Virus record (IMG/VR): IMGVR_UViG_3300029746_000001
Direction: 5' to 3' (one strand)
Source: a virus
Taxonomy: Duplodnaviria > Heunggongvirae > Uroviricota > Caudoviricetes
Length of the DNA: 64,000 nt
Below are positions 1 to 47,573 of the stretch, in pieces (positions within the stretch are counted from its first letter, which is position 1; every line of letters starts with the position of its first letter). The translations under genes and the position numbers were made by a program. The notes below the pieces were generated by a model. The model worked only from the letters and a program-made list of their open reading frames with translations. It did no database searches and was not told the DNA's origin.

Positions 1-2136
1 CATCTGACCTGCTATCATATCAGACACTCTACTGTTTTTCTCAGCATATCTTAGCTGGGTAATAGTTAATGGTTCACCTTCCTGATAATCTTTTAAATCT
101 ATATCACCATCCTTATCTATGGTCATATAATCAGATATATTAAAATCAGGATCGCCGTTGAGTTTCTTCATTCCATTAATAAGAGCTAATGTACCAGTAG
201 AGGAACCATTATTCTCGCCTGTAATAGCATCAAATATGTTTTTCCCCAACTTGCCGGCACTCACATTAGCCCCTGGTGACGGAGATGTAGCACTATGAAT
301 ATCTATTCCTCTTGAAGAGTCCATCATGTATTCTCTGAACCCTACGGCATCAGATACACCAGTTGTTATGGCTGTGGCGAGCAGGAAGGCTCCAGCCTTA
401 TCATCTGTATCGGTAAGATTTATAAAAGAATTTCCTCTCATAAACTTAGCATTACGAACTTTACTGATAATATCCTTATTTTTTTTAGTAACTATATTAT
501 CTATTTGATAATCAGTTATGTTATTTATAGCCTTTGTGGCTCCATTTGCCTTAGAATCAGAAAGAAGTAAAGCATCATAAGCTTCAGACAATCTGTTATT
601 TCCTTGTCCAAAATATCCGTTTTTCTGACCTCCATTATTTTTTAAATAAGAATATATCCGTTCTTCAGGAGTCATATTAGCATACAATCCTGGGTCAGTT
701 TTTTCTTCTTCGTATGATGCTGCAACGATATTACTTCTGTCTGTAGGAGATAATGAATTATATAATTTCAATAAATTTGCTCTACGCTCTGTGGAAAAAG
801 ATGTGAGTTGTTCATAAGGGATATTAGCCAAATTAACAGATCCTATCTTACCCGTTCCAGAATTGATAGCCGTAGGCCCGTCCATAGGAGCCATCGGCAC
901 TCCTACACCGCCTGCTCCTCTTGTGCCTCCGGATGAGCTTTCAGTGCCCATCTTGGAACCGTAAGTACGCATGTATTCGGTTTCAATCTTAGCCTGTGCA
1001 AGTTGCTCTTCTGCCAACGATATTTCAACCATAGACTTAGCATTATCAGTCAAAAACTTTTGCTGAGCCCTATCCTCTGCCAACCTTGCAAAATAAAGAT
1101 CATCTTTCTTCCTTTCAAAACTTGTATTGTCGTATCTCCATGCATCAGTCATCTTATCGAAAAGATTATTGGTAACAACAAAATTAGCAGCCGCTACCTG
1201 ATCTGATGAAGCTATTATCATATCTGCCTCCCTCTTGGCTTCTGCTTTCTGATTTTTAGCTTCCTGTATCTGACTGTCAATACGATCAATAATATCCTTA
1301 TTATCCCCTACTGATTTCTTTTTTGCTTCCAATGCTCCTATGTGCCTATCGTATCTTTCGACATAAGACCCAATGTATTGACTAACCAAATCTGGATTAC
1401 TGAACACCGGATTGGTAGCTGCCATGTATGATGCTTCTATTCTCATCTGATTCCTCATGTTTTCAGATAAGTTAGCAGACACAAAATTCCTTATCTGGGA
1501 ATCAGTAAGCTCATCTACGTTGACTTCTATGATTCCACCAGTAGGATTACCTTTAACATCATATTCTGTTGTCTGAATCTTCTTGCCTTCGTTGTTTTTC
1601 CTAAAATCACTGACCAGCTTATTTATCTCCTTAGTATAATCGACATAAGGAGAATAATGAAGACCTCCCAACCTTGATCCTGCTTTACCATCTGACCTCC
1701 ATTTGTAATAAGGGTCCAAAGCATGCCATTCATTAATAGGAGAATAAAGTTCAGGATGATTCTGTTTTATAGATTCTATTTCCTTCATAACCCTCTTGCC
1801 TTCTTTTGTGCCGGCAATCGCGTTAATGACCGTATCATCCAACACTGAACTGATCTCTCCTTGTATGGCTCTCGTAACACCATCAGAAGAAAGATCCACG
1901 CCTTTGAATTTTTGATTGATGTTAGCAATCACACCTGACATCTTATCTTCCATATAAGCGCGGGCTTCAGGCTTATCTATCTCTTGACCCATAAGATAAT
2001 CTACCTGGGTATAGATCTTTTCACGAGCAGCATCAACCTTCTGCTGTTTGTACATCATGACGTCCTTAACAAGATCTATGTTGTAAGGACTAACATACGG
2101 GGCATATTGCCTTAAAATACTATACTGTGAAGCCAC
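1..2136 (-). CDS. Putative internal virion/ejection protein, running off the window start
   Basis: Manual translation from a GTG at 2136 that overlaps the upstream TAG: MASQYSILRQYAPYVSPYNIDLVKDVMMYKQQKVD... It is absent from the ORF track, consistent with no stop before the window edge. It lies downstream of the other cargo-like gene. Confidence 0.6.
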   Translation of the reverse strand, partial: MASQYSILRQYAPYVSPYNIDLVKDVMMYKQQKVDAAREKIYTQVDYLMGQEIDKPEARAYMEDKMSGVIANINQKFKGVDLSSDGVTRAIQGEISSVLDDTVINAIAGTKEGKRVMKEIESIKQNHPELYSPINEWHALDPYYKWRSDGKAGSRLGGLHYSPYVDYTKEINKLVSDFRKNNEGKKIQTTEYDVKGNPTGGIIEVNVDELTDSQIRNFVSANLSENMRNQMRIEASYMAATNPVFSNPDLVSQYIGSYVERYDRHIGALEAKKKSVGDNKDIIDRIDSQIQEAKNQKAEAKREADMIIASSDQVAAANFVVTNNLFDKMTDAWRYDNTSFERKKDDLYFARLAEDRAQQKFLTDNAKSMVEISLAEEQLAQAKIETEYMRTYGSKMGTESSSGGTRGAGGVGVPMAPMDGPTAINSGTGKIGSVNLANIPYEQLTSFSTERRANLLKLYNSLSPTDRSNIVAASYEEEKTDPGLYANMTPEERIYSYLKNNGGQKNGYFGQGNNRLSEAYDALLLSDSKANGATKAINNITDYQIDNIVTKKNKDIISKVRNAKFMRGNSFINLTDTDDKAGAFLLATAITTGVSDAVGFREYMMDSSRGIDIHSATSPSPGANVSAGKLGKNIFDAITGENNGSSTGTLALINGMKKLNGDPDFNISDYMTIDKDGDIDLKDYQEGEPLTITQLRYAEKNSRVSDMIAGQM

Positions 2137-4964
2137 TATTTGGTCCTCCTTCTTCTTTTAGTTTCATCATCTTCTTCATTTAAACTTCTCAAGTAAGGTG
2201 TAGAATAATCACCCATATTCATCACATCCTGATTACCTTGAACGTAAATAATTTGGCCACTTGGAAGCATTCTCATATTCGGAGCTATGGAAGCTATGGT
2301 ATTCAACGATGTACGAACATTGAACTTATTCTGTATTTCGCTGTTTATGCTATCATAATAACGAGCAAGATTTTCATCCCTTATAGCCATAGCCTTCAAT
2401 AACCCGGATTCATAACGTTGCCTTTCCGCTATGTTCTTATCGTCTGTCTGAACATAAGCCATTTCATTGAATCTATCAGCTTCGTTTATTTGCCTTGCGT
2501 TATTGAAATTTACTTCGTTAATGTACTTGGCTATATTGCTTCCGGCTATGGCGTTCATATTAGCCAGAATAGCGGAGCGCTGGGAGTCGGGCACGTCACC
2601 TACTGCGTCCAACTGAGCCGATGTCGCGCGGTTGAGCTCGTTGATATACTGATCAGCAGATTGAAGAACTGGGTCTATTCTCGGAGCCTGATGTCTTTCC
2701 AGACCTTCTATCTCCAAGCCTGTATCGAGCGTTCTCAGCATCTCCGGGAAGATAGGACCGAACGCCGCCGGTCTGCCCTGCCCTTTAGGTCCGTTGTCTT
2801 CAACCACCTCCTCTGTATCGGTGTCGGTTGCAGTCGTAGGCGTACTTGCTTTCGGTTTTACCTCTACCCTTCCAGGAGATCCAATCTTAGGCGGTGTAAG
2901 GCCTGGGGCCTCAATAGGCTTCATTTCTGGTTTAACAGACTCAAGAACGAAGTCTATTTCCGGCATTAACCCACTATCTCTTAAAGCAACAAACTTATTA
3001 TAATCGGAGCCCAGAATCTTCTTAGCGGCATCAGATTTATCACCAAATAAGTCAACATAATTCTTTATCCCTTTTTCGTTTAACAATCTTTTTTGCTCTG
3101 CCGAAACAACGTCCAACCCATAATAAGAACGAGTAGCTGTTGTCTGACCAAACTTATCATCTACGGCAAATGAATTATAAGCCTGATTCCCTCCGTAGCT
3201 TCCGGCGTCCTGGCCCCAGAATCCGTATTCATCTCTGAATTTCTTGGCTGCATCAGCATTCGTAATAGCGCCTACATCAGCTAACGCCCACAATGCATTT
3301 AATTGCCTGTTGTATCCTTTCTGGAAACCTTCTGTATCAAAATCACCATCCGTATTGTACTTGTTAGCCCATCGGTTTACGTCGAGCAAATTAGATACCG
3401 CCTTATCGTTTACCCTGCCGTATCCTAAATTGCTTCTATGTTGGAGATTCTGATTGGCATTGACACTGGAATCAGGATTAAGAATCTGCTCACGACCACT
3501 AACATCAGATACAGTCATATTAAGAGTTCGTCCAAATAACTGATTGATAAGCTTATTGTAGCCGATAGCATTCTTTCTAAGTTCCTCCAGCTCCTTCTGA
3601 GTAGGTCCACCTTCAGCCATTTTTCTGGTTTGCTTAACATACTCGTCATATATCCAGTTCTTAGCATCTGATTCTGCAATATTAAAAGCCTTAGCTTGTT
3701 TCTTTACCTGATTCAGATCAACAACCCCGCCATCCCTGAAAAAAGCATCCATCTTCTCGTTACGCTTAGATTCTTCCTGTTTGCCATAAACGATTTCAGC
3801 GAAAGAACGAAATTGTGCTTCAAGCTCGTCTATCTCTTTCTGGTTTTCATTGACGTACTTGGAAAGAATAGAAGCATTAAGATTAGATGTGTTTTTGTCT
3901 TTTACTTCTTCATTTTTCTCTAATCTCTTATATACACGCTCCTGATCTTCGTACTTATCAGACAAACCTATCTTTTTCTTATATCGATCAAGGAGTGTAG
4001 CATACGTATCTTTTGACGTTGCCTTAATACCATAATTTTCTCTAACGTAAGAGGCAAACTCATCATCTATCTTACGATAATCGGAAACAATATAAGCCTC
4101 TGGCAAATCAACCGGAGTACCACCATTTTCATGCCTGTCCCCTTTGGCTTCCATAGGCCCTACGGAGTCAGGAGTCAGCACGTACTCGCCTTTCTCTATC
4201 TCTACATTCGCAGCATCTTCCATAGACTTGGGAAGAGGATAAATATATTCTCCGGTCATATCAGACGTATCCATCTTCTGACCGTTACCTAAATTCACGC
4301 CACCACCTTCACGTTCCCACTTGATGAATTGCTGACGACGCTCCTTGGCAAGTTTTTCCCTCGCTGCCTGCTCGTCTCTGCTGGCTGCATACGCAGCAGA
4401 TGAAGCTCCCATGATATTACGGGTAAGACCTAATCCTAAACTAACACCAGACAAGGCAGCTTGAGCCACATTAGCACCGACCTTATTACCGGCTCTTATC
4501 CGACCAAGACTTGTACCGAACATTTGAGCTCTGCCGGTTAGATCGGGTGAATAATATGGGGTAGTCATAGGATCCAGAGGATTACCATCTTGGGAACGTT
4601 TTTCTTTAGAGGAATCAGAATCAACACCACCTAAATTCATTGCATTATCAACGACTGATTTCTCTACGTTTTTAACCATGCCCCTATTATCAGCGAGATA
4701 TCCTGCATATCCTGCATCATGATTTTCAAAAAACGGATCGGATGTAGGCATACTACTAAATGGATTTATCTCCCCCTCCTCTGTTTCTAAAGTCACATCA
4801 GAAGGCATATATATATTCTGAATATCAGATTCACCCCATTTATTAACAGGCGTTCCATAATCAAGAATAGGCTGAGTAGAGGATACATTAATATCCTGTT
4901 TCTTATCCTGAACACTACCGCCAGGAGCGAATATCGGACGATTTTTTATGATTCGTAATTTCAT
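2136..4964 (-). CDS. Large putative internal virion (cargo/ejection) protein
   Basis: About 940-aa ORF with an EIEKGEYV...GDRHENGG motif, Ala/Gly-rich and coiled-coil segments and repeated xxGG motifs. The ATG at 4964 is preferred because a promoter overlaps the track's 4979 start. Confidence 0.6.
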   Translation of the reverse strand: MKLRIIKNRPIFAPGGSVQDKKQDINVSSTQPILDYGTPVNKWGESDIQNIYMPSDVTLETEEGEINPFSSMPTSDPFFENHDAGYAGYLADNRGMVKNVEKSVVDNAMNLGGVDSDSSKEKRSQDGNPLDPMTTPYYSPDLTGRAQMFGTSLGRIRAGNKVGANVAQAALSGVSLGLGLTRNIMGASSAAYAASRDEQAAREKLAKERRQQFIKWEREGGGVNLGNGQKMDTSDMTGEYIYPLPKSMEDAANVEIEKGEYVLTPDSVGPMEAKGDRHENGGTPVDLPEAYIVSDYRKIDDEFASYVRENYGIKATSKDTYATLLDRYKKKIGLSDKYEDQERVYKRLEKNEEVKDKNTSNLNASILSKYVNENQKEIDELEAQFRSFAEIVYGKQEESKRNEKMDAFFRDGGVVDLNQVKKQAKAFNIAESDAKNWIYDEYVKQTRKMAEGGPTQKELEELRKNAIGYNKLINQLFGRTLNMTVSDVSGREQILNPDSSVNANQNLQHRSNLGYGRVNDKAVSNLLDVNRWANKYNTDGDFDTEGFQKGYNRQLNALWALADVGAITNADAAKKFRDEYGFWGQDAGSYGGNQAYNSFAVDDKFGQTTATRSYYGLDVVSAEQKRLLNEKGIKNYVDLFGDKSDAAKKILGSDYNKFVALRDSGLMPEIDFVLESVKPEMKPIEAPGLTPPKIGSPGRVEVKPKASTPTTATDTDTEEVVEDNGPKGQGRPAAFGPIFPEMLRTLDTGLEIEGLERHQAPRIDPVLQSADQYINELNRATSAQLDAVGDVPDSQRSAILANMNAIAGSNIAKYINEVNFNNARQINEADRFNEMAYVQTDDKNIAERQRYESGLLKAMAIRDENLARYYDSINSEIQNKFNVRTSLNTIASIAPNMRMLPSGQIIYVQGNQDVMNMGDYSTPYLRSLNEEDDETKRRRRTK

Positions 4965-19633: not shown

Positions 19634-19745
19634 GTTAATAACTGTTTGTCACAAAGATAGCAAAAGGGATTTAATAATGGATTTCTAAAGTAGGTGAAGA
19701 AAAGAAATACATTTTCAGTCTCCTACTTTATCGACCACGCCTACA

Positions 19746-21094
19746 GGTGATTATATACCACTTTACACCAGAAATGTAAAATAGTATATATTTATACAGA
19801 AATACGTACCGGGTTCCACCAAAACCCTCTACCTTCTGGTAACATCGTTACATCAAAGGATTCTTTTTCTGATTTTCTAATGATGTTAAAAGCACCATTG
19901 ATATCAGCATTAATAGTCCTACCAAACGAGGTTTTAAACAATCCTCGTTTGGTCCTTCTTCCTTTGTAAGATTCATGTTTACAAATCCGTTCATTATCCA
20001 AAAAGCTACATTTTGAAGTATAAGATTCTTCAACAATCTTAACATTAATACCTTCTAATGTTGCTTTATAAGATATCATTGAGATAAATACATTAAAAGG
20101 AATAGATACAAAGTTCTGATTATTTTGTTTTCCGATATTGATCTCTTGTTTCCAGCATTTGTTATGACCGATTATGATCGTATTAATACCATTGGAAACT
20201 ACGTGATTAACCAATATCCTACTTGCCTTGTGAAGATAATCTTTGATCTTATTATTCCTTTTGTTAGTTAATGACCTAATTTGTTTTGAAGTATGTTTAT
20301 TATCTTTTAATTTAGATTTTAAGAATGCTAATCTTTTATTATAATATTGGTTGATAGACTTTAGTGGTCTACCATTGATGATAAAACAAGAACCGTTGTT
20401 TGAAACACAAGATGCTAAATTATCTAATCCTATGTCGATACCAAGATAGTTCCCATTATCGGACATAAGATCTTTTTCCTTCTTATTGTAAACTATTTCA
20501 AGAACAATATATCCATTCTTAGGAACGAATCTAAGTTGTTGAATATTTTGTTTATTGGTTCTTGTGGTAAAGGAAAACTGTTTAGGTAACTTAACAATAC
20601 CTTGTTTTATCCATTTTTGAGAAAAAGATGCGGTCGTAAAAACAGCAGGAAACAAACCGTCTTTGTTAAGATACTTAGGCATTCTAACAAATTCGGAATA
20701 CTCACCTCTATTCTTTTTATTAAAGAGATTGAAGAAAGATTTAAAGTTCCTATCAACCATCATCAACACCTGTTGAGCAACCGGTGCTGGTAAAGCACGA
20801 TAGTCAACATCATTTTCTGTTTTCAACACTCTTTCGAGAGAATAATAGTTGAGGTATTTATACTTTACAGTATTATCATTCTTGTATTGAAAGTAGTGTT
20901 GTCTAACAACATACAACCCTTTATTGTATAAGTTTTTACACTTATGCAATAGGTCTTGAAGCTCATTGTAATATATTGAACTTTGTTTGATTATATGTTG
21001 TTCAACTAATCTCATGACACAAATATAGGAATTATTATTTATATATAAAAAAACAATTTCCTATATTTGTGGTGTAAAGTTGTATATAATCACC
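19746..21094 (-). mobile_element. tnpB-only element with terminal inverted repeats and 5-bp flanking direct repeat
   Basis: Ends read GGTGATTATATACCACTTTACACCAGAAATGTA (from 19746) and, reverse-complemented from 21094, GGTGATTATATACAACTTTACACCACAAATATA: 30/33 identical. CTACA lies on both outer sides (19741-19745, 21095-21099). Confidence 0.85.
19792..21015 (-). CDS. tnpB: TnpB-family RNA-guided nuclease, rearranged RuvC-II type
   Basis: LGIDIGLDN (RuvC-I), IIIG in place of the canonical Glu, alternative VEESYTSK, NADINGAFNI (RuvC-III). The zinc finger is degenerate. Confidence 0.9.
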   Translation of the reverse strand: MRLVEQHIIKQSSIYYNELQDLLHKCKNLYNKGLYVVRQHYFQYKNDNTVKYKYLNYYSLERVLKTENDVDYRALPAPVAQQVLMMVDRNFKSFFNLFNKKNRGEYSEFVRMPKYLNKDGLFPAVFTTASFSQKWIKQGIVKLPKQFSFTTRTNKQNIQQLRFVPKNGYIVLEIVYNKKEKDLMSDNGNYLGIDIGLDNLASCVSNNGSCFIINGRPLKSINQYYNKRLAFLKSKLKDNKHTSKQIRSLTNKRNNKIKDYLHKASRILVNHVVSNGINTIIIGHNKCWKQEINIGKQNNQNFVSIPFNVFISMISYKATLEGINVKIVEESYTSKCSFLDNERICKHESYKGRRTKRGLFKTSFGRTINADINGAFNIIRKSEKESFDVTMLPEGRGFWWNPVRISV

Positions 21095-21188
21095 CTACAA
21101 TATTATCCCATTGAAATTGACTCCCTTCCATTACAGGAGAGAAACAATTACCCATCACCATATTAACATTTTCAAATCTTCGTCTCAT
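21095..21188 (-). pseudogene. 5' part of a short MRRR-start ORF interrupted by the TIR-tnpB element
   Basis: MRRRFENVNMVMGNCFSPVMEGSQFQWDNIV runs into the element. Removing the element and one CTACA gives ...DNIVGVVDKVGD* (39 aa). Confidence 0.4.
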
Positions 21189-21197
21189 AACATTTAC

Positions 21198-21980
21198 TTA
21201 CGATTTATATTTTTTACCCCTAATTAACACAGTACCATCACCGCCGGTTCCTTCCGAGCCGCATCCGCCTCCTCCGTAACCACCACTTTTTCTGTCTCCT
21301 CTTCCGATTCCACATCCTTCATCATAATCGGATTCACCTCCCATACCACCATCTCTATTTCTATCAGCTCCACCACCTCCGGCATTTCTTTTACCCGTCG
21401 GTTCTCCAAAATCTCTGGTTGTATATCCTTGACCTTTTCCTCCTCCATATTTCGTTCCAGGTGGGTGATATATCCCATTACCGTCTGTTATTCCAGGGGC
21501 ATCAGATCCATCCGATCCAGCGTAAAACTCATCACCTGATTGATCTACAGATCCTCCACTTCCACCATTTCCTCCAGTATAAGGACCACCTGTTGAGTTT
21601 TCTCCGTTAAGAAGACCATTACCAGAAGGATTTCCACCATCTGCTCTGTAAGATGAGTTCATAAATTGAGAGAATCCTCCCTTCTCAGGATAGCCATAAT
21701 ACAGACCTTCTCCACCTTTTCCTACTATGATCTTAATTTCTTGACCTGGTGTTACAGATATTTGAGAACCTTGTTTTATTCCTATATTGTTTCTTTTGTA
21801 GGTCTTGGTATATCCACTTCCGGCGCCAGAACCGTTTCCACTTCCACCACCTCCACCAACAAGAAAAACATCCACCTCGGTACAACCACCAGGGACTACC
21901 CATGTGTAATTGCCGGCCGGATAAAACCTTATGATAAAGTCTTCAAGTTCCCTATTTTTTTGCAATAAACGACGTCTCAT
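21198..21980 (-). CDS. Glycine-rich domain protein, tail-fibre associated
   Basis: YTWVVPGGCTEVDVFLVGGGGGSG...GGDGTVLIR is the typical glycine-rich domain frame. Confidence 0.7.
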   Translation of the reverse strand: MRRRLLQKNRELEDFIIRFYPAGNYTWVVPGGCTEVDVFLVGGGGGSGNGSGAGSGYTKTYKRNNIGIKQGSQISVTPGQEIKIIVGKGGEGLYYGYPEKGGFSQFMNSSYRADGGNPSGNGLLNGENSTGGPYTGGNGGSGGSVDQSGDEFYAGSDGSDAPGITDGNGIYHPPGTKYGGGKGQGYTTRDFGEPTGKRNAGGGGADRNRDGGMGGESDYDEGCGIGRGDRKSGGYGGGGCGSEGTGGDGTVLIRGKKYKS

Positions 21981-46283: not shown

Positions 46284-47573
46284 GATCTTTAACAAAGCCC
46301 CTGCTTTTAAATAGGGGATCAATGATTCTTTTGTTTATATATGTATTTTTAATAATTGATTCTAATATACACCCAAAAGTTATTATTATATTCACGCTGT
46401 AAATGTAATTAAAAAAATGATTTCATACAAATACAACATCTATCATTCAAAGAAAACAAAGTATCTCGATAAGATGCTGCGTGAATGCTGTTTCGTATGG
46501 AATCATGCTTTAGCTCTACAACGTAGATACTACAGACTGTTTGGGAAATACATACCAGTTGGTAAGATGCAAAAGCATTTTGCAAAAAGGGTAAAAAGAA
46601 TCCTACTTCATTCCCAAACAGTACAAGAAATCCTTCAAAGATTAGATTCTGCATACAATCGTTTCTTTAAGAAATTATCTAAACGTCCACCTAAGTTCAA
46701 AAGATCAGATTGTTTCAACTCTTTTGTTTTTAGACAAGGAGGGTTTACCCTGAATGGAAATTGTCTAACAATTAACAAAGGAAAGAAAAGATTTAGATTC
46801 TCATACAGTAGAGTCTACGAAGGTAATGTTAAACAAATTAGAATAGTTAAAGAAACCTGTTCCCGCTTTAGTTTGATTATAGTTACAGATCATAATCATT
46901 CAAACTCTTATAGAAAGACACATGATGGTGCATCGATAGGATTGGATTTTGGCCTGAAAACTTATCTAACTAAAAGTGATGGTAGCAAAATTAATTCTCC
47001 TCTATTCTTCAAACGATATCAAAACAAGATTAGAAAACTAAACAAACGGCTTTCTAATACAAAGAAAGGATCCAACAATAGAAGAAGGAGATTGTTTGAA
47101 CTACAACAAGCGTATCGTAAAATAAAAGATCTTCGATCAGACTTTCAATGGAAATTAGCTCATCAGTTATGCAAACAGTATGATTATATTTTTATTGAAG
47201 ATCTAAACATTGAAGGAATGAAGCGTTTGTGGGGAAAGAAAGTTTCCGATCTCAGTCATTCTTCTTTTATTAACAAACTTACGTATGTTGCTTCAAAGTA
47301 TGGAGTAACGATACATAAGATTGATAAATGGTATCCTTCTTCCAAAACTTGTGAATGTGGCTGCATTAATAAAGGTCTGTCGTTACGCGACCGCACGTGG
47401 GTGTGCCCAGCGTGCGGCGCGATCAACGACCGTGATGTTCTTGCAGCCCGTAATATACTTCGGAAGGGCATTTCCGAATTGGAGAGCAAGAGTAATTCCA
47501 GCGATAATAATATCGGGGTTTCTTGCGCTTGCATCCAAGAATCCCATTTGCTTTAGCTATGGGAGTATGTCAA
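46284..47573 (+). mobile_element. Non-autonomous IS200/IS605-family (IS1341-like) element
   Basis: Inserted 3' of TTAC and ends in TCAA. Subterminal hairpins cccctgcttttaaatagggg and tcccatttgctttagctatggga. No tnpA. Confidence 0.88.
46417..47556 (+). CDS. tnpB: TnpB RNA-guided nuclease with canonical RuvC and zinc finger
   Basis: IGLDFG, FIEDL, SKTCECG...CPACG and DRDVLAARNI. Confidence 0.93.
   Translation: MISYKYNIYHSKKTKYLDKMLRECCFVWNHALALQRRYYRLFGKYIPVGKMQKHFAKRVKRILLHSQTVQEILQRLDSAYNRFFKKLSKRPPKFKRSDCFNSFVFRQGGFTLNGNCLTINKGKKRFRFSYSRVYEGNVKQIRIVKETCSRFSLIIVTDHNHSNSYRKTHDGASIGLDFGLKTYLTKSDGSKINSPLFFKRYQNKIRKLNKRLSNTKKGSNNRRRRLFELQQAYRKIKDLRSDFQWKLAHQLCKQYDYIFIEDLNIEGMKRLWGKKVSDLSHSSFINKLTYVASKYGVTIHKIDKWYPSSKTCECGCINKGLSLRDRTWVCPACGAINDRDVLAARNILRKGISELESKSNSSDNNIGVSCACIQESHLL

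Follow-up and report, generated by a model that had tools for sequence, protein, structure and literature searches.

A tnpB gene in a transposase-less IS1595-type element of crAss-like gut phages: a candidate homing cassette

We analyzed a 64,000-nucleotide stretch of phage DNA (the window) in which a tnpB gene is the sole gene of a 1,349-bp non-autonomous element of the IS1595 type (19746..21094, minus strand). Our best explanation, to which we give a probability of about three in four on the basis of sequence comparisons, is that the element is a transposase-less IS1595 cassette that is moved in trans, and that its TnpB cuts empty alleles into which the cassette would then be copied by repair (homing). 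This reading is built on ends in common with autonomous IS1595 elements, 8-bp target-site duplications (TSDs), an intact nuclease, a covarying hairpin, and a junction motif specific to the nuclease.

The element, its phage, and its IS1595 partner

The window phage is a gut crAss-like phage. Its tail ring protein matched PF24228, which marks it as crAss-like, and one of its structural proteins shares 98.9% identity with the counterpart in crAssE-Sib (GenBank OR575929), described as an epsilon crAss-like phage (PMC11054128). OR575929 also carries a 99.9% copy of the element with the same left junction as in the window, and copies of 1,341 to 1,353 bp were found at many sites. The element is bounded by terminal inverted repeats (TIRs), the left-end TIR at 21062..21094 (minus strand) and the right-end TIR at 19746..19778 (plus strand), which are identical at 30 of 33 positions, in agreement with the imperfect 33-bp repeats claimed in an earlier sequence-only reading of this DNA. 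They form the longest inverted repeat within 19 to 22 kb of the window, and exact copies of a TIR 13-mer occur in the window only at these two ends. A single long open reading frame (ORF) lies between them and encodes the 407-amino-acid TnpB (19792..21015, minus strand), as expected from the claim that tnpB is the only content; 46 bp separate its stop codon from the element end. An AT-rich hairpin with 27-bp arms (21018-21071) lies between the start of tnpB and the left TIR; its pairing is weaker in other element copies. A promoter scan returned 9 sites, compared to 9.5 expected by chance. The insertion truncates a small phage ORF, annotated in OR575929 as a short hypothetical CDS, and its 5' remnant spans 21090..21188 (minus strand).

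A 307-amino-acid IS1595-family protein was found in three of the TIR loci (PF12762, E value of 3e-42; NF033547, E value of 5e-57; weak zinc ribbon match, PF12760). This transposase has 237 IMG/VR relatives, for which 80 loci were fetched, and the nearest relatives lie in elements of 2.4 to 5.5 kb with passenger genes. In the autonomous elements L132 to L171, the passenger ORFs are shuffled, and several have lipoprotein-like N termini. The first 25 bp of the window's left-end TIR are identical to the right end of two autonomous elements, L135 and L137 (25/25 bases), and the right-end TIR, which doubles as the predicted 3' end of the guide RNA scaffold, is identical to the left end of L137 at 23 of 24 positions. 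The TIRs begin with GG and are common to the element and the autonomous partner. The TSD of the IS1595 family is 8 bp long (PMC8101967), and a perfect 8-bp TSD was present in 6 of the 26 autonomous flank pairs, with the remaining 20 lacking a perfect one.

The sequence-only reading had taken the element for a DDE-type TIR element with no transposase of its own and had named a Y1 or serine TnpA in the autonomous partner as evidence to the contrary. The same phage group does contain a partner with these ends, and it encodes an IS1595-family DDE transposase rather than a Y1 or serine TnpA. Partner and tnpB element occur together on at least six IMG/VR contigs (locus listings compared by hand). 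None of the 80 transposase loci had tnpB and the transposase within one element, and no IS1595 transposase was found in the element, in the 64,000-nucleotide window, or in OR575929; for this reason, it is from the common ends, the TSD length, and the co-occurrence that we infer mobilization in trans, likely by the IS1595 transposase of related phages. In some genomes, this would require a co-infecting phage.

Miniature elements of 51 to 452 bp with the same ends were also seen (L142:8238-8288, L040:2501-2551, L109, L218, L082, and L056, with further loci L030, L053, L140, L516, and L009). The 51-bp form is close to what certain tnpB copies have as their right-end hairpin; the 98- to 102-bp forms are internal deletions located at tnpB insertion sites. 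A Tannerella locus (L292) has a weaker TIR pair without a TSD. Among 401 genomes of the same order, the TIR pattern gave single matches with one or two mismatches in 7, and no transposase or TnpB match lay within 1.5 kb of these.

Target-site duplications, empty alleles, and right-end deletions

Searches with the TIR pattern returned at least 131 viral loci, and searches with a pattern from the tnpB 3' end returned 87 metagenome loci and at least 119 viral loci. Merging of redundant loci left 63 distinct flank pairs among the matches listed, 19 with a perfect 8-bp TSD, 3 with a 7/8 match, and 41 without a TSD. These counts stem from the stricter clustering, which gave 19 perfect TSDs, the TWA motif described below at 17/22 TSD sites, and the motif at 10/25 left junctions without a TSD; looser clustering gave 18, 17/21, and 6/21, respectively. 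For the 19 perfect-TSD sites, 18 different 8-mers are listed. The element family therefore makes the 8-bp duplication of the IS1595 family, which at the window copy is gone through deletion.

The pentamer CTACA, which directly flanks the element in the window, had been interpreted as a 5-bp TSD. Its presence at 19741-19745 and 21095-21099 was borne out and its role as a TSD was not, the true TSD being 8 bp. At 19741..19745 (plus strand), CTACA is native phage sequence at a deletion end point, and in element-free alleles it lies 393 bp from the insertion site. A 5-bp repeat was found at one flank pair only, that of the window; by chance, the 41 pairs without a TSD would give about 0.2. CTACA is absent from the junctions of other element copies. 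Empty alleles had been predicted to have a single CTACA at the junction; instead, the element-free alleles run for 393 bp from the left-end 8-mer to the window's right flank. Because of these 393 extra bp, the 39-codon ORF that results from excision, which was thought to restore a continuous frame, fits no natural empty allele seen. In the empty alleles, the small ORF continues in frame, with a 99-amino-acid form in L053 that is itself ended by a miniature element. Other TIR copies were expected to have different duplications of 5 bp, and such copies lie at many sites with differing duplications, the length of which is 8 bp. The combination of a 5-bp TSD and ORF restoration was thus rejected by the 393-bp gap in the empty alleles and the 8-bp TSDs elsewhere.

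Of the original 8-bp target, one copy remains at 21095..21102 (minus strand; TATTGTAG on the element strand), and the right-side copy is deleted. Among the 78 loci fetched with the neighboring gene, 46 were empty at the window site and 5 were filled. The filled alleles have lost 336, 342, or 393 bp on the right side (393 bp in the window), and the right TSD copy is missing in all filled alleles seen at this site. The right flank of OR575929, unlike that of the window, is the 336-bp deletion form. Since the window and the 336-bp form have private flank changes in common, the window allele likely arose from the 336-bp form via a further deletion of 57 bp that started exactly at the right end. 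Deletions anchored at an element end are a product of intramolecular transposition.

About 110 bp away, at 21200-21215, the window contains a second insertion site for the same element in the opposite orientation, which is occupied in phages of the L017/L214 type as well as in runs X1 and X2. At L002 and like loci (element at 2501-3847), the two flanks adjoin each other in the free allele without a duplication, which is the pattern that precise removal of one TSD copy would leave.

The TnpB nuclease, its predicted guide RNA, and the junction motif

The window TnpB matched PF01385, PF07282, and NF040570 (E value of 1e-53) and has a TNB domain and an intact RuvC D-E-D triad (D194, E330, and D371). 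The triad is kept in 85 of 86 distinct 407-amino-acid CDS, an ORF of at least 396 amino acids is present in 158 of 169 full-length copies, and the median pN/pS among 80 divergent tnpB copies is 0.12. At the sequence level, the catalytic residues are intact and the gene is under purifying selection. A search of solved structures with TnpB gave no match at an E value of 0.001.

Close homologues are abundant at 80 to 96% identity; the next one is 69% identical over its full length, and the rest are below 60%. The 80 best GTDB loci (identity of 52% or less) include 12 with a serine recombinase upstream, and all seven of those recombinases tested scored as IS607 transposase. No Y1 transposase was found among the 51 upstream ORFs scanned at these loci. 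The nearest genome relatives of the window TnpB include IS607 elements. Only tnpB and not the element ends are of IS607 kin: IS607 elements have a serine TnpA and neither TIRs nor a TSD, whereas the window element has no TnpA and belongs to a family with TIRs and 8-bp TSDs. An IS607-type GG core at the junctions was also considered and was rejected by the 19 sites with variable 8-bp TSDs. Elements of the IS200/IS605 type (IS1341 group) have subterminal hairpins without TIRs or a TSD and a Y1 TnpA. The element family differs from them in its TIRs and TSDs and in the absence of Y1 from the relatives' scanned upstream ORFs.

The window contains another TnpB, of 379 amino acids (46417-47556), which is near the IS200/IS605 profile and shows no match to these TIRs. 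On a bacterial contig assigned to an uncultured Akkermansia (L369), a 42%-identical TnpB lies in a 1,457-bp element (around 3501-4730) with different, perfect TIRs and an 8-bp direct repeat.

The 3' part of the predicted omegaRNA scaffold covers 19745..19832 (minus strand). It consists of a stem (19811-19827), a small hairpin, a terminal hairpin (19752-19790, minus strand) with the TIR as its 3' arm, and a predicted pseudoknot (minus strand) in which the loop GGTGG (19816-19820) is complementary to the last five bases of the TIR (19746-19750). The z score of the fold is -3.09. In a set of 29 sequences of one length that we chose, the terminal hairpin showed two-sided changes at 5 pairs (18 cells), a value reached in 1 of 500 shuffles; the hairpin is thus conserved with compensatory changes, and it is absent from the autonomous IS1595 end. 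The pseudoknot showed no two-sided change within the element family, where its loop is fixed by the search pattern. The IS607 relatives show the same geometry in different letters: the final codons form a stem-loop, the loop of which pairs with the end of the element, and one T follows. A comparison with Rfam gave no family and three chance hairpin matches below the gathering scores.

The first base outside the right end is T in 84 of 87 right junctions. In ISDra2, too, a single base separates the pseudoknot from the guide (PMC10097598), and the scaffold of CboIStron finishes on the same bases as its TAM (PMC10690162). In our model, the scaffold would run through the end of the TIR and take one further base, a U, from TSD base 1, and the guide would start at TSD base 2. 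At the window copy, the predicted last scaffold U (19745, minus strand) comes from the first flanking base, and the predicted 16-nucleotide guide (19729..19744, minus strand) was created by the 393-bp right-side deletion; TTA|T precedes it in element-free alleles. A guide fixed inside the TIR is unlikely because the TIR end falls at the right-end position of the IS607 relatives.

Across the start of the 8-mer, the TSD sites (including 7/8 matches) have TWA|T in 17 of 22 cases among the matches listed, compared to 3 of 21 at the mirror position. In element-free alleles, the right junctions of the window TnpB lineage have TWAT in 35 of 53 cases and AAAT in none of the 53 (a free allele was available for 53 of 90 junctions, and a few of the 53 rows that are filled copies were kept). 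A second TnpB of 402 amino acids, near the IS200/IS605 profile and 27% identical to the window TnpB over 153 amino acids, occupies 1,331-bp elements with the same IS1595 TIRs and 8-bp TSDs at 30 loci (L576 to L605). At its right junctions, the element-free alleles have AAAT in 11 of 12 cases and TWAT in none (free allele available for 12/19 junctions). Autonomous ends have TWAT in 2/21 and 0/21 cases, and the background frequencies are 1.7% for TWAT and 0.9% for AAAT. Since the motif tracks the nuclease, with TWAT at one TnpB, AAAT at the other, and neither at autonomous ends, these junction motifs are likely the TAMs of the two nucleases. The predicted TAM is TWA or TWAT; a T lies outside the equivalent autonomous end in 21 of 24 cases, and the outer T is partly the transposase's own preference. 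For the original insertion in the window, the predicted TAM would be TAAT at 21102..21105 (minus strand) and would include base 1 of the 8-bp target. In L577, one of the elements with the second TnpB (around 2001-3206), a canonical-looking GTCAA end was seen about 30 bp inside the right TIR.

Right junctions made by deletions have TWAT in 20 of 27 cases, compared to 10 of 25 left junctions never seen with a TSD (P = 0.024). Three of the 27 rows are artifacts that were kept (two match another filled copy, and one is off by one base); without them, the count is 20/24. Two of the 27 are 7/8 TSDs.

In ISDra2 TnpB, about 12 TAM-proximal bases matter (PMC10097598). A free allele that combines the TAM with a perfect 12-nucleotide seed was present for only 23 of 45 sites. 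At the left junction, the self-match run is 7 nucleotides at 19/19 intact sites, and two of these 19 sites reach 10 matches within the first 12 guide positions. The seed showed no surplus of escape changes (35 versus 22 substitutions, P = 0.11) and behaved like the controls; an enrichment in the first count, which had included alleles with nearby junctions, was not significant after filtering. The predicted guide of the window matches perfectly only three element-bearing parental alleles, and of the 42 empty alleles scored, 32 have one seed mismatch and 10 have more.

Proposed mechanism, rival explanations, and known systems

In the mechanism that we propose, an IS1595 transposase would insert the cassette and make the 8-bp TSD, and a transcript reading past the right end would supply a guide from TSD base 2 onward, with TWAT as the TAM and its last T as TSD base 1. 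An empty allele in a co-infecting phage would then offer the TAM and a full match and be cut, and repair from the filled genome would copy the cassette across. The filled site would escape at its left junction, which has the TAM and only 7 contiguous guide matches, and at its right junction, which has the guide match without the TAM. Right-end deletions made by the transposase would give a new guide, and those landing on a TAM would spread; the window copy would be the product of such a right-end deletion onto a TAM. A broader version, which we advance tentatively and at somewhat less than even odds, is that in epsilon crAss-like phages IS1595 shells may twice have captured unrelated TnpBs and become self-reprogramming homing cassettes. 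Their guide would be rewritten with each right-end deletion, only TAM-ending deletions (TWAT or AAAT) would spread, a variant could target its own parent allele, and the region would be eroded stepwise (0, 336, 342, and 393 bp).

The motif might instead arise at insertion, rather than through later homing selection, if a TnpB-RNA complex bound near the right end steered the transposase and placed insertions and deletions at the TAM. Steering would agree with a motif that follows nuclease identity and with seeds that lack an escape signature, and the 17/22 primary insertions with the motif are many for selection alone, given that the transposase's own rate is about 6/26 or 5/37. Yet steering should mark left junctions without a TSD and deletion-made right junctions alike, and the richer motif content of the latter favors selection on the guide, if only modestly; the catalytic residues are also kept, as expected if cutting matters. 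We consider steering unlikely. We regard it as quite unlikely that TnpB serves only phage competition, cutting rivals without copying, or is carried along as an idle passenger, while the cassette spreads only via transposition and ordinary phage recombination. The varied passenger genes of the autonomous relatives, the persistence of tnpB-less miniatures with the same ends (13 flank pairs), and again the seeds without an escape signature would fit this, and identical insertions in different phage backgrounds could be ordinary mosaicism. A pure passenger leaves the purifying selection and the nuclease-specific motifs unexplained, although cutting without homing fits both equally well.

That the element is an ordinary tnpB-only member of the IS607 or IS200/IS605 type, with CTACA (or its GG) as a recombination core, is highly improbable. 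The serine recombinases upstream of tnpB at 12/80 GTDB loci point that way, and a 6-bp reading of the direct repeat would contain GG on the element strand, but the variability of the 8-bp TSDs (19 sites and 18 different 8-mers listed) refutes this reading, the ends are those of an IS1595 transposase element, and CTACA does not recur at other copies.

In a 2026 review, the purpose and the mode of action of TnpB in cut-and-paste transposons are described as unclear; the TSDs of such transposons vary and their excision is not scarless (PMC13565253). The homing cassette that we favor would give a concrete and testable answer: one TSD base is common to the TAM and the scaffold, seven TSD bases start the guide, and the nuclease's own motif filters the insertion sites. 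The presence of two unrelated nucleases in the same type of IS1595 shell provides a natural control. The family would also supply two small nucleases, whose TAMs are predicted to be AT-rich, and would represent a selfish force behind gene loss in phages that are abundant in the gut.

Altae-Tran et al. (2023, PMC10691335) described six DDE-associated TnpB branches (DDE-1 to DDE-6) with inverted terminal repeats, as well as solo TnpBs whose ends hardly differ from those of transposase-bearing elements and for which trans-mobilization was proposed. The window element resembles these in its TnpB between TIRs, in a tnpB 3' end close to the transposon end (<250 bp), and in solo copies with partner-like ends. 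It differs in its partner, which is IS1595 here and IS630 in the main text of that paper, and in having no element with both genes, a TSD of variable 8-mers, and two unrelated TnpBs that use one type of shell. IS1595 does not occur in that main text and is a profile-list row in one supplement file, and the partners listed in the 2026 review are ISL2, IS630, and IS1031, with IS1595 absent (PMC13565253). The main text of the crAssE-Sib paper does no more than note two TnpB-family genes and contains neither "inverted" nor "insertion sequence" (PMC11054128). No link between IS1595 and TnpB was found in the openly accessible literature listings searched. The arrangement has been known in outline since 2023, and IS1595 as the partner was not found in print within that literature.

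As in the IS1595 family, the TIRs begin with GG and the TSD is 8 bp, and the partner has an N-terminal zinc-finger region and a DDE_Tnp_IS1595 domain (PMC8101967); unlike that family, the window copy lacks a transposase, carries a predicted RNA-guided nuclease, and has a scaffold predicted to use the TIR. With the IS607 TnpB of CboIStron, for which homing and retention were shown, it has in common relatives behind IS607 serine recombinases and, by prediction for the window element, a last scaffold base that is the last TAM base (PMC10690162). IS607 elements have no TIRs or TSD, and their transposase and TnpB recognize the same fixed motif (PMC10690162), whereas the window element has DDE-type ends and a predicted TAM that overlaps a variable TSD by one base. 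The sequence-only reading had proposed a prokaryotic parallel to Fanzor-carrying TIR elements; the TIR element is real, and the parallel was overstated, since prokaryotic TIR TnpBs with DDE partners, and solo copies mobilized in trans, had already been reported (PMC10691335). Like the Fanzor1 TIR transposons, the window element places a TnpB-like nuclease in a DDE-type TIR element (PMC13565253). In Fanzor1, which has lost the pseudoknot, the 5' TSD is part of the TAM and the 3' TSD part of the scaffold, and these two take up the whole TSD (PMC13565253); in the window element, by contrast, only TSD base 1 would belong to the TAM and scaffold, the guide would open with the other seven TSD bases, and a pseudoknot is still predicted.
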